A stretch of 24,231 nt of DNA from a virus (Duplodnaviria; Heunggongvirae; Uroviricota; Caudoviricetes). The DNA is taken from IMG/VR virus record IMGVR_UViG_2690315980_000001; one strand, written 5' to 3'. Shown in pieces: positions 8,946 to 12,748 of the stretch (positions within the stretch are counted from its first letter, which is position 1; the number at the start of each line of letters is the position of its first letter). Below the pieces are notes generated by a model. It had not been told where the DNA came from. It saw only the letters and a program-made list of their open reading frames with translations, and did no database searches. Both the position numbers and the translations under genes were made by a program.

Positions 8946-9059
8946 TGATGATCATAATCAATTGATAAATTATCATTTTTTATCTTTCATACTATATGCT
9001 TTTGATGTAGCATTGGTCATTCTTTTAATAAGCCAATAAATATCAAGAGTAAATAGAAA

Positions 9060-9872
9060 ATGAGCGATAAGTTAAATCAAAAAATCCAAACACTAAACCT
9101 AAAGAAAGATCCAGTAATAATCGACCTGGTTAAGAAAACCGCAATCTCGTTAGAGAAGAAGGGTATTAATCTGGACAAGGACGCTGCCCGAGTTGCTTTG
9201 TGCATGGACTTCTCAGGCAGTATGTATTGGCTAATTAAGAACGGTACTGTCAGTGAGTTAACACAACGATCATTGGCTCAAGGCATCGTTATGGATGATG
9301 ATGGTGATATTGAGGTCTTTGGCTTTGGTTCTGATGCAAAGTACATTGAATCCATCAACGCCGACAACTATGTAGAGTACTGTGAAGGTGTTCAGCGAGA
9401 CATGCCAGATTTCGGTTCAACCTATTACCATAAAGCAATTAATCTAATTGTAAGTCATTATGACCGCATTGGTTATGATAAACCTGTCTATGTCATCTTC
9501 GTAACTGATGGTGATACCTTCAGCAAAACTGCAACTGAGGAAGCACTAAAAGCCGCTTCAGGCAAGCCAATCTTCTGGCAGTTCATTGGTATTGGTCAAG
9601 ATGACTACGATCCTAATCAGGTAGATGCCAAAGTTGTGAAGAAACCTGGAGTAATCGGTCGTTTCCTTGGCGCTAAAGAAAAAGAAGTTCCTAACACTAA
9701 GTTTGAGTTCTTAGTTAAACTTGATGAAATGGAAGGTCGCGTGGTAGATAATGCTGGATTCTTTGCTGTAAAAGATCCAAAGAGTATGAGTGCTGAACGT
9801 ATGTATGACTTGATGCACAATGAATACCCAGAGTGGCTTAAAGAAGTACGAGCTAAAGGCATTCTTCGCTAA
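9060..9872 (+). CDS. vWA-domain protein of the TerF-like (tellurite/stress ter-associated) family
   Basis: MIDAS DFSGS, VIFVTDG, PIFWQFIGIG, LDEMEGRVVDNAGFF. Confidence 0.85.
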   Translation: MSDKLNQKIQTLNLKKDPVIIDLVKKTAISLEKKGINLDKDAARVALCMDFSGSMYWLIKNGTVSELTQRSLAQGIVMDDDGDIEVFGFGSDAKYIESINADNYVEYCEGVQRDMPDFGSTYYHKAINLIVSHYDRIGYDKPVYVIFVTDGDTFSKTATEEALKAASGKPIFWQFIGIGQDDYDPNQVDAKVVKKPGVIGRFLGAKEKEVPNTKFEFLVKLDEMEGRVVDNAGFFAVKDPKSMSAERMYDLMHNEYPEWLKEVRAKGILR

Positions 9873-11044: not shown

Positions 11045-11770
11045 TTGACATACGACTACGGGTTCCATATGCGCACTTTTGAAGAGATCGGAAATATAGC
11101 GATAAATGCATTGCTATCTTATCATTGCTCCCCTGAAAGAATGAAAGTTTCAAAAGAAGCTACAGTAAGACTATATCTTAAGAAAGTGCTATCTCGAAAA
11201 AAGTACAGCAAAAATTCATGTTATTACCTAAAGTCACTCTTACAAAAAGCTACATCATCCTACTCAATGTATAATGTTTTAAGTGGAATTGCTGAAAACT
11301 ACACTAGAGTCATATCTCATGATAAGAAATTTGATGACATTTGCTTTTACGATAGATTTCAATCTTTATTTAAGAAGATGCGTGATCTTGGTTATGAGCT
11401 GCATATAGACATTGAAGGTGATTCACTGTTTCTAAACGAAAACAGTAAAGCTATGGTGATTTTCAAAAATGACTATATCAATTTAGAACCGTCTGGTGAT
11501 CTTACTGGAGTTCTTTATGTCACTGTAGTTAATAAATGTATGTATGATTTTATTGAATCAGCATTTAACTCAGGTCTATACCCAAAACTATTCAAAGAGA
11601 GTAGTAACGTTAGTAAATTTGAGATTCATCCTAACAACAACCCACCAGCACCAATTTCATTTATTTCTACAAAGGAAGATTATCTTCATAAACGCCGAGT
11701 TATGGCTAATGAGAAATCATTATTTGCTGGCAAGGTAAACCCGTTCCAGTTAAAAATGAAGAAATCCTAA
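11045..11770 (+). CDS. Hypothetical protein (TTG start); N-terminus loosely recalls DUF2913, unverified
   Basis: 241-aa ORF; upstream TAGACA-16-TAAAAT with extended TG. Confidence 0.6.
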   Translation: MTYDYGFHMRTFEEIGNIAINALLSYHCSPERMKVSKEATVRLYLKKVLSRKKYSKNSCYYLKSLLQKATSSYSMYNVLSGIAENYTRVISHDKKFDDICFYDRFQSLFKKMRDLGYELHIDIEGDSLFLNENSKAMVIFKNDYINLEPSGDLTGVLYVTVVNKCMYDFIESAFNSGLYPKLFKESSNVSKFEIHPNNNPPAPISFISTKEDYLHKRRVMANEKSLFAGKVNPFQLKMKKS

Positions 11771-11778
11771 ATTTTCTG

Positions 11779-11806
11779 TTGACTTTCCTAGACCAAGAAT
11801 TATAAG
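11779..11806 (+). promoter_or_regulatory. sigma70 promoter for leader L3
   Basis: TTGACT-16 nt-TATAAG. Confidence 0.6.
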
Positions 11807-11842
11807 CTTTAATTGTAAACATACATTTTTAAGGATTTTATT

Positions 11843-11911
11843 GTGAAAGCTAAAACATTTATTACCTCTAAAGTAGGTATCCAGCAACCGTGGCAACAAG
11901 CTTATGTGTAA
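11843..11911 (+). CDS. Leader peptide L3, 22 aa MKAKTFITSKVGIQQPWQQAYV (GTG start)
   Basis: SD AAGGA in AGGATTTTATT-GTG; codons CAG CAA CCG TGG CAA CAA at 11882-11899; stop lies in the first hairpin of the attenuator. Confidence 0.85.
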   Translation: MKAKTFITSKVGIQQPWQQAYV

Positions 11912-11997
11912 GTTTTAGCTTTCGCATGGCTAAAACTTAGGTTTTAGCCACAGGAAAGACACCTAACCCCTGATGGCTCTCCATCAGGGGTTTTTTT
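11909..11997 (+). terminator. Attenuator of leader L3: alternative hairpins plus intrinsic terminator
   Basis: A:B TAAGTTTTAGC/GCTAAAACTTA (11 bp); B:C TGGCTAAAAC/GTTTTAGCCA (10 bp); C:D AGCCACAGG/CCTGATGGCT; terminator AACCCCTGATGG-CTCT-CCATCAGGGGTT followed by TTTTT. Confidence 0.88.
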
Positions 11998-12116
11998 ATG
12001 CTTAAAAAATTCAGATGGAATAAAGTCAACTTATCTCTGCATATCTATGCTGGAGAGGAGGTCTTGTGGTTTTAGTGTAAGTGCTTGATTTTATTGAATT
12101 TTTTTTAATTTTCTTG

Positions 12117-12145
12117 TTGACAGATAAAATGTTCAGGTTTAATAT
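12117..12145 (+). promoter_or_regulatory. Near-consensus sigma70 promoter immediately upstream of tRNA-Pro
   Basis: TTGACA-17 nt-TAATAT. Confidence 0.75.
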
Positions 12146-12169
12146 GTAGTCATACAGTAAAGAAACACA

Positions 12170-12246
12170 CGGTGAATAGCGCAGCCTGGTAGCGCATCTG
12201 CTTTGGGAGCAGAGGGTCGAGAGTTCGAATCTCTCTTCACCGACCA
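12170..12246 (+). tRNA. tRNA-Pro(UGG), copy 1
   Basis: TCTGC-TT TGG GA-GCAGA; C1-G72, A73; CCA. Confidence 0.95.
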
Positions 12247-12257
12247 AATTATATTGT

Positions 12258-12334
12258 TGGGGTGTAGCCAAGTTGGTTTAAGGCAATAGACTTTGATTCT
12301 ATGAACGGGGGTTCAAGTCCCTCCACCTCAGCCA
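12258..12334 (+). tRNA. tRNA-Gln(UUG), copy 1
   Basis: ATAGA-CT TTG AT-TCTAT; U1-A72, G73; CCA. Confidence 0.95.
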
Positions 12335-12346
12335 GAACAACAAAGT

Positions 12347-12422
12347 GTAGAGGTAGCTCAGTTGGTAGAGCATCGGATTCCAAACCCGCTGGTCGGGGGT
12401 TCAACTCCCTCCCTCTATGCCA
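12347..12422 (+). tRNA. tRNA-Trp(CCA)
   Basis: Acceptor GTAGAGG/CCTCTAT; loop TT CCA AA; G73; CCA; anticodon stem has two mismatches. Confidence 0.88.
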
Positions 12423-12426
12423 CATT

Positions 12427-12503
12427 CGGTGAATAGCGCAGCCTGGTAGCGCATCTGCTTTGGGAGCAGAGGGTCGAGAGTTCGAATCTCTCTTCACCGA
12501 CCA
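12427..12503 (+). tRNA. tRNA-Pro(UGG), copy 2
   Basis: Identical to 12170-12246. Confidence 0.95.
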
Positions 12504-12514
12504 AATTACATTGT

Positions 12515-12591
12515 TGGGGTGTAGCCAAGTTGGTTTAAGGCAATAGACTTTGATTCTATGAACGGGGGTTCAAGTCCCTCCACCCCAGCCA
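12515..12591 (+). tRNA. tRNA-Gln(UUG), copy 2
   Basis: One acceptor-stem difference from copy 1 (C12585 vs T12328). Confidence 0.95.
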
Positions 12592-12619: not shown

Positions 12620-12748
12620 ATGTCATATAATAATTATTATCTAATCATGAAATGCTTAGATATTATTGAGAAAGAATTAAACAATATTGCTGCACATGTT
12701 GGTCATCCATCATTCAATGAATTCATGAGAGGAAAGCGCGATGAATGA
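12620..12748 (+). CDS. Small hypothetical protein, 42 aa
   Basis: GAGG SD before the ATG; MSYNNYYLIMKCLDIIEKELNNIAAHVGHPSFNEFMRGKRDE. Confidence 0.45.
   Translation: MSYNNYYLIMKCLDIIEKELNNIAAHVGHPSFNEFMRGKRDE

Follow-up and report, generated by a model that had tools for sequence, protein, structure and literature searches.

How does a large mobile element adjust the supply of the transfer RNAs that it encodes? This question is raised by a tRNA gene array in the IMG/VR virus record IMGVR_UViG_2690315980_000001, a stretch of 24,231 nucleotides (nt) that is referred to here as a whole as the window (features lie on its plus strand unless stated otherwise). Five tRNA genes, Pro(UGG)-Gln(UUG)-Trp(CCA)-Pro(UGG)-Gln(UUG), occupy positions 12170-12591, and are preceded by a short open reading frame (ORF) rich in glutamine, proline and tryptophan codons. 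The initial annotation had read this ORF as a leader peptide whose translation controls a terminator upstream of tRNA genes for the same three amino acids. The Pro-Gln-Trp-Pro-Gln order it had given for the array is the one found by both ARAGORN and Rfam. Computational comparison with homologues of the locus and with other arrays, on sister plasmids and on Pseudomonas megaplasmids, lends strong support to the central idea, RNA folding agrees with it, and the element is probably a ribosome-mediated leader-peptide transcription attenuator that regulates tRNA genes. What did not stand is attenuation as the only control, as a second, conserved promoter lies between the terminator and the array.

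The leader ORF (11843-11911) has 22 codons, with a GTG start, a TAA stop at 11909-11911 and the C-terminus QQPWQQAYV. A Shine-Dalgarno sequence, AAGGA (11832-11836), can be read 7 nt 5' of the GTG, and the short ORF therefore has both the start codon and the ribosome-binding site expected of an attenuator leader. The AGGATTTTATT context of this Shine-Dalgarno sequence is also found 5' of the start codon of a second leader ORF, at 1272-1397 on the minus strand, which serves another array (see below). The control codons, CAG CAA CCG TGG CAA CAA (Gln Gln Pro Trp Gln Gln), lie at 11882-11899, and the ORF and this block are both where the initial annotation had placed them. The clustered codons match the function that would be regulated, namely the Pro, Gln and Trp tRNAs. 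A putative leader promoter, P1, reads TTGACT-16 nt-TATAAG (11780-11808). It is missing from the list of a consensus scan because the last base of its -10 hexamer is G. Its -35 hexamer TTGACT is unchanged in two diverged homologues, in one of which (L100) the promoter reads TTGACT-17-TAATAT.

The region recurs at 98-99% identity in four complete PLSDB plasmids of 882-938 kb, and on sequence identity the window is part of a Vibrio megaplasmid of about 0.9 Mb. In a six-frame scan of the 882-kb sister plasmid only four runs of at least six P/Q/W codons were found, of which QQPWQQ alone contains all three residues. By our own arithmetic, the chance of such a run within the roughly 390 codon positions 5' of the array is about 1 in 1000. 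In viral contigs the control block, searched as an exact 18-mer, matched 11 times; these matches were rejected as chance, as their flanks were without similarity.

Downstream of the control codons lies a chain of mutually exclusive helices, which had been described as having the stop codon within its first helix and ending in a 12-bp U-tailed terminator; a repeat finder recovered four overlapping helices, the terminator included. Segment A (11842-11856, 15 nt) includes the start codon and is 93% complementary to 11912-11926 within segment B, with which it pairs in the minimum-free-energy fold (helix A:B, 11842-56/11912-26). Segment B (11909-11926), identified by the repeat finder and in the stalled-ribosome fold, includes the stop codon and can pair with A or with segment C, the latter as a perfect 11-mer with the stop codon inside it (helix B:C, 11909-19/11929-39). 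Segment C (11927-11939) is seen in repeats and folds, is invariant in the homologues and can pair with B or with segment D. Constrained folds place segment D at 11941-11958, where it pairs with C (helix C:D, 11919-36/11941-58) or, via 11947-11954, with the 5' arm of the terminator. The intrinsic terminator itself (11965-11999), identified by repeats and a terminator scan, consists of a perfect 12-bp stem (11965-11976/11981-11992) with a CTCT loop, followed by a T7 tail, and stands between the leader ORF and the tRNA genes. It is the sole strong plus-strand terminator from the upstream gene to the tRNAs. The leader RNA folds with a z-score of -6.95, and none of 200 shuffled sequences folded as well. 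A search with a 20-mer spanning the stop codon and segment B returned nothing from genome_contigs and two chance matches from metagenome_contigs.

The predicted folds depend on where the ribosome stands. When the ribosome is stalled with the Trp codon in its A site, the RNA from 11907 to 11980, just short of the terminator 3' arm, is predicted to form B:C and an antiterminator (-25.2 kcal/mol). This antiterminator (11947-54/11970-78) covers 7 of the 12 nt of the terminator 5' arm and forms only when B is free, and in computation it thus both overlaps the terminator and follows ribosome position. For a ribosome stalled at the last Gln codon, we calculate a front edge at about 11910, with the start of B at 11909-11911; the edge stops just short of B, and therefore all six control codons leave B available. 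When B is covered by a ribosome at the stop codon, C:D forms in the constrained fold and the terminator 5' arm is largely free, and when no ribosome is present A:B, C:D and the terminator form together. The leader of L100 offers the same alternative folds.

These folds suggest a mechanism of the following kind. Transcription from P1 would give a leader RNA of about 180 nt, on which a ribosome translates the 22-codon ORF. Fast decoding of the Gln, Pro and Trp codons would let the ribosome reach the stop codon and cover B; C:D and the terminator would then form, and transcription would end at about 11995-11999. A stall at any of the six Q/P/W codons would allow B:C to pair, leaving D free to bind the terminator 5' arm, and RNA polymerase would read through into the Pro/Gln/Trp array. 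If no ribosome is loaded, A:B, C:D and the terminator would all form and the system would be off. Such a circuit would regulate the supply of usable tRNA-Gln, tRNA-Pro and tRNA-Trp by negative feedback. The analysis shows the anatomy, the statistics, the pattern of conservation and the alternative folds; from there we infer that the ORF is translated, that stalling turns the switch on in vivo rather than off, and that a shortage of decoding capacity is the physiological trigger; the more specific triggers named in the initial annotation, anticodon nucleases and codon demand, may be among its causes.

If the leader works in this way, its control codons and helices should outlast their surroundings, and they do. 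The leader is 100% identical from promoter to terminator in six replicons, with a variable spacer at 12060-12090. More informative are two diverged homologues (L100 and L106), which were reached via the neighbouring L,D-transpeptidase gene, whose product is 60-63% identical to that of the window; synteny is conserved in both assemblies. Both L100 (7757-7825) and L106 have a 22-codon leader at the same place, with an ATG start instead of GTG. Seven of the first 13 residues differ from those of the window in these leaders, and the C-terminal half is kept. One homologue reads QQPWQQAYV with a synonymous change of CAA to CAG; the other reads QQPWQPAYV, in which CAA has become CCA, replacing Gln with Pro and so staying within the Pro/Gln/Trp set. 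A search of homologous loci for conserved Q/P/W codons with synonymous variation had been proposed as a check on the attenuator, and these two homologues provide that pattern. Identity to the window is 94% for the QQPWQQ block, 100% for AYV and the stop codon, 83-86% for the switch from B to D (where most of the differences come from a loop indel that makes helix C:D longer), and the terminator (in L100) is 91% identical. It falls to 62-64% for codons 1-13, 41% for the spacer and 30% for the linker. A third relative (L102, a 182-kb Logan contig) keeps the flanking YkuD-like gene and the UDG neighbour, and the interval between them, 8946-9123, has neither tRNA array nor leader. The Pro/Gln/Trp module therefore looks like a unit of insertion or deletion.

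The same design is found at other arrays of the Vibrio replicon. The 882-kb sister plasmid, NZ_CP062152.1, carries 75 tRNA genes, arranged as one lone tRNA-Gly plus four arrays, between which the amino acids are shared out. Array 1 (Asn/Lys/Glu/Thr/Met/Phe/Ala/Val/Cys/Asp/Ile) corresponds to the minus-strand array at the start of the window, which starts at 966; the tRNA-Thr and tRNA-Met that had been predicted to lie just outside the window were found here on the sister plasmid. Array 2 is Pro/Gln/Trp, array 3 Leu/Ser/Tyr/His and array 4 Arg/Met/Ser/Gly/Leu/Asn/Lys. Two leader ORFs precede the minus-strand array, both on the minus strand. The one already mentioned (1272-1397) has 41 codons and is followed by a terminator at 1178-1211; 5' of it, behind a promoter at 1690-1719, is an ORF of 34 codons (1524-1628) with a terminator at about 1429-1461. 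Both are 100% cognate, as every residue is among the 11 amino acids of their array, and they are the two longest runs of this 11-letter set, with 44 and 36 codons, the next being 26 (six-frame scan, 1.76 million codon positions).

Two further leaders lie before the Leu/Ser/Tyr/His array (NZ_CP062152.1 406413-406467 and 406638-406695). As called, 81% of the residues in the first and 94% in the second are cognate, and starting the first at its second ATG brings the pair to 93-94%. They hold the longest run of this set on the plasmid (16 codons) and one of the two next-longest (13 codons). They use TTA, CTA, CTT, CTG, TCT, TCG, TCA and AGT, and thus most isoacceptors of the array are probed. At this array about 25 nt separate the end of the second terminator from the first tRNA, too few for a promoter, and read-through is therefore the only possible route of transcription for these tRNAs. 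Each of these four sister leaders is followed by a U-tailed hairpin, and in three of the four cases there is a 9-12-nt complement to the terminator 5' arm. In three of them the antiterminator appears in the minimum-free-energy folds of both the 'stalled' and the 'at stop' truncated RNAs, and since the two states fold alike the switch can be argued there only kinetically.

The Arg/Met/Ser/Gly array is a different case, as no leader ORF with a restricted alphabet was found upstream of it or in its internal gaps. This array (NZ_CP062152.1 472281) has a P2-like promoter and no clear attenuator. A 60-codon ORF 5' of it (about 471847-472030) ends in Arg-Arg-Arg, encoded by AGA CGT AGG, three codons that correspond to the array's three Arg anticodons (UCU, ACG and CCU); no U-tailed hairpin follows this ORF.

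Codon-matched leaders also occur on more distant elements. A search with the XseA-like protein of the window led to three Pseudomonas megaplasmids (0.9-1.2 Mb) at an identity of 34-42%; one of these plasmids is pBASL58, of the pMPPla107 family. These plasmids carry 41-56 tRNAs, in arrays, and mini-ORFs matched to their own array lie 5' of eight of these. Acidic/Arg blocks precede Glu/Asp/Arg arrays, e.g. ERRDDRDDR before an Arg/Asp/Glu array, and peptides rich in Ser, Thr, Pro, Leu and Met precede arrays of those tRNAs. The two larger sets show own-set matches of 0.78-0.93, and the Asp/Glu/Arg set, which has three members, shows matches of 0.42-0.48 that are carried by a block of 7-9 codons. 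The large mixed arrays (L087, L090 and L095) have three homologous, diverged leaders, 114-273 nt 5' of the first tRNA, which are 88-93% cognate to their own array and 4-17% to others. Each Pseudomonas leader has a promoter-like site before it and a strong terminator after it, 20-40 nt from the first tRNA. At these arrays, as at the Leu/Ser/Tyr/His array, transcription must be solely by read-through from the leader promoter, and in several cases a promoter would not fit between terminator and tRNAs. The Pseudomonas plasmids group Trp and Gln in the large mixed array and Pro with Ser/Thr/Leu/Met, and have no Pro/Gln/Trp grouping. A paper on the pMPPla107 plasmid family counts the tRNAs, and leaders and attenuation are unmentioned. 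The small ORFs of the tRNA region of phage T5 were also considered as codon-matched leaders and rejected, since none of the twelve that were translated has a restricted alphabet.

With these arrays in hand, the plainest account of the locus can be judged, namely that the hairpin only terminates the upstream 241-codon gene and insulates a tRNA promoter, the ORF and QQPWQQ being accidental. The terminator does follow that gene (11045-11770) with no other terminator between, the gene and the leader share RNA contigs, and no Rfam family matches the leader. Against this stand the roughly 1 in 1000 chance of the run at this place, the recurrence of the design at no fewer than 11 other arrays, and the conservation of ORF length, reading frame, Q/P/W block and overlapping helices while the flanks have drifted to 41-64% identity. 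We consider accident extremely improbable.

The attenuator reading has its own difficulties, the largest of which is the second promoter. P2 (12085-12145) comprises TTGACA-17-TAATAT (12117-12145; 10 of 12 positions agree with the consensus) and an A/T-rich tract upstream of it, and lies between the terminator and the first tRNA; it was absent from the description in the initial annotation. Its upstream tract and -35 hexamer are also found 5' of the Arg/Met array of the replicon, and both hexamers are kept in L100, though the spacer before them is only 41% identical. The Pro/Gln/Trp array thus very probably has its own promoter. Transcription here is not solely by read-through from the leader promoter, and with P2 conserved downstream of the terminator the attenuator cannot be the sole control of this array. 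Several other observations also weigh against attenuation. The leader has only one Pro codon and one Trp codon, and its GTG start sits within helix A:B. The antiterminator is modest (8 bp plus a bulge) and is weaker still in L100. At equilibrium the terminator fold is favoured, at -40.5 against -25.2 kcal/mol, and the switch must therefore be kinetic, as it is in classical attenuators. There is no compensatory covariation because the helices are nearly invariant, and the only covariation-like support comes from one C to U substitution, which produces a G-U pair, together with the loop indel noted above.

Transcript data bear on both promoters. They consist of assembled RNA-seq contigs from four runs in two studies, with two of the runs possibly being the same data. 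Contigs cover the leader up to 11962-11970, with a mean depth of 46-170 for the leader-bearing contig, whereas depth is 0-5 in the spacer and 169-206 over the tRNAs. In two runs the spacer 12004-12141 is uncovered, which proves nothing alone, as a hairpin can break assemblies. The pattern fits efficient termination and separate expression of the tRNAs, as a weak hint only, because assembled contigs do not reveal RNA ends and may be broken at the hairpin, and because mature tRNAs are long-lived. The high tRNA depth beside a near-empty spacer is a further point on the opposing side, and fits either P2 activity or the stability of mature tRNAs.

If P2 drives the tRNAs, the codon sensor could be real and its output different, the main product being a trans-acting one, either the terminated RNA of about 180 nt or the peptide, and read-through a minor one. 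The conservation of P2 would fit this, as would the highly structured leader RNA and the two runs in which the mean depth of the leader contig (170) is similar to that of the tRNA contigs while the spacer is near-empty. There is also precedent for trans-acting products of an attenuator, described in the abstract of PMC7968998; the attenuator-derived small RNA rnTrpL and the peptide peTrpL of Sinorhizobium may be compared. We regard this alternative as unlikely, since no target or partner has been identified, and since the other arrays and those of Pseudomonas have no promoter between terminator and tRNAs, so that read-through must be the output there. The leader also has no paralogue elsewhere on the replicon: none was found on three sister plasmids, where only the upstream tract of P2 recurs.

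The coexistence of leader and P2 could also be historical. An ancestral arrangement of promoter, leader, terminator and tRNAs might have gained P2 later, leaving the leader as a decaying remnant; no other array of the replicon combines a leader with a promoter downstream, and the cognate block here, at six codons, is the shortest of all leaders. Decay is not what the homologues show, however. Across relatives whose neighbour protein is only 60-63% identical, intergenic conservation is highest in the block, the stop region, the switch and the terminator, the sole amino-acid change in the block remains within P/Q/W, and the six replicons share an identical leader despite their variable spacer. 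A vestige is therefore very unlikely. Under the attenuator reading, P2 would add an attenuator-independent input, and read-through would boost expression rather than gate it.

Leader-peptide attenuators are well known from enterobacterial amino-acid operons (trpL, hisL, pheL, thrL, leuL and ilvL) and from pheST, which has the leader pheM. The present locus shares with them a short ORF with clustered codons, overlapping helices, an intrinsic terminator, a stall that would favour the antiterminator, and an untranslated 'off' state, and the leaders of the other arrays, each covering several amino acids, are reminiscent of the multivalent thr and ilv leaders. Unlike in the classical systems, the genes under control here are tRNAs rather than biosynthetic or synthetase genes, and the loop therefore feeds back on tRNA supply. 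The architecture also differs: there are five segments and a start-codon helix, and the control codons precede the first switching segment, which holds the stop codon. Moreover, the leader alphabets mirror whole tRNA arrays, with up to 11 amino acids, and at this array a second promoter follows the terminator. Compared with the Pseudomonas leaders, the Vibrio locus is distinguished by its Pro/Gln/Trp grouping and by the extra promoter after its terminator, with the same design and proposed logic.

The T-box riboswitches of Gram-positive bacteria are another point of comparison, as they also respond to tRNA charging by controlling terminator read-through. T-boxes sense tRNA directly, and control synthetase, biosynthesis and transporter genes. 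Here there is no specifier loop or T-box motif, and sensing would go through the translating ribosome. The T-box covariance model gave no match at the Rfam gathering threshold or at E-values up to 10, and identity as a T-box riboswitch was ruled out on the absence of an Rfam T-box match. Among Rfam families only tRNAs pass the gathering threshold; matches to PyrR, His_leader and Phe_leader are far below it, and the best of the non-tRNA matches, PyrR (33 bits against a threshold of 54), rests on hairpins and the terminator.

In full-text literature searches, no account of tRNA genes or arrays under the control of a leader peptide was found. Leader-peptide attenuation is known for amino-acid biosynthesis and synthetase genes, and in this locus the loop appears to close on tRNA abundance itself. 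If this is correct, it would explain how dozens of tRNA genes are regulated on very large mobile elements, why these genes are grouped by amino acid, and how the element could respond when decoding fails at specific codons, be it through tRNA mismatch in a new host, starvation or tRNA-cleaving defence systems. It would also provide an annotation rule, i.e. a codon-matched mini-ORF and terminator ahead of tRNAs, and compact natural codon-specific sensors for synthetic biology. More tentatively, such megaplasmids might possess a modular, demand-sensing tRNA supply, in which the code is split among arrays that are each switched on by stalling at their own codons. This could keep the element self-sufficient in translation when the tRNA pool of the host falls short or comes under attack, anticodon nucleases and other tRNA-depleting defences being examples, and at the Pro/Gln/Trp array a basal promoter plus attenuator could give a two-level response.

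The array itself varies among these plasmids. A 257-bp Pro-Gln-Trp unit has been amplified, giving 5, 8, 11 or 20 tRNAs across the window and the sister plasmids. In two sister plasmids the last tRNA-Gln has the anticodon CUG, not UUG.

The 241-aa protein encoded upstream of the leader forms a single 90% cluster, to which V. parahaemolyticus, V. cholerae, V. vulnificus and V. antiquarius contribute members; the contigs that carry them reach 938 kb. No relatives of this protein were found in viral contigs, and searches of a phage collection gave only tRNA matches or distant XseA-like ones. A phage origin was rejected in favour of the Vibrio megaplasmid. A 71-kb IMG/VR 'provirus' record (G001) starts directly 3' of the tRNA array, from window position 12620 onward, with 94% identity over the first 81 nt. 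The gene content of the megaplasmid in this region is phage-like, with DHFR, SSB-like, XseA-like, UDG, NrdG-like and Sir2 genes and many orphan genes.

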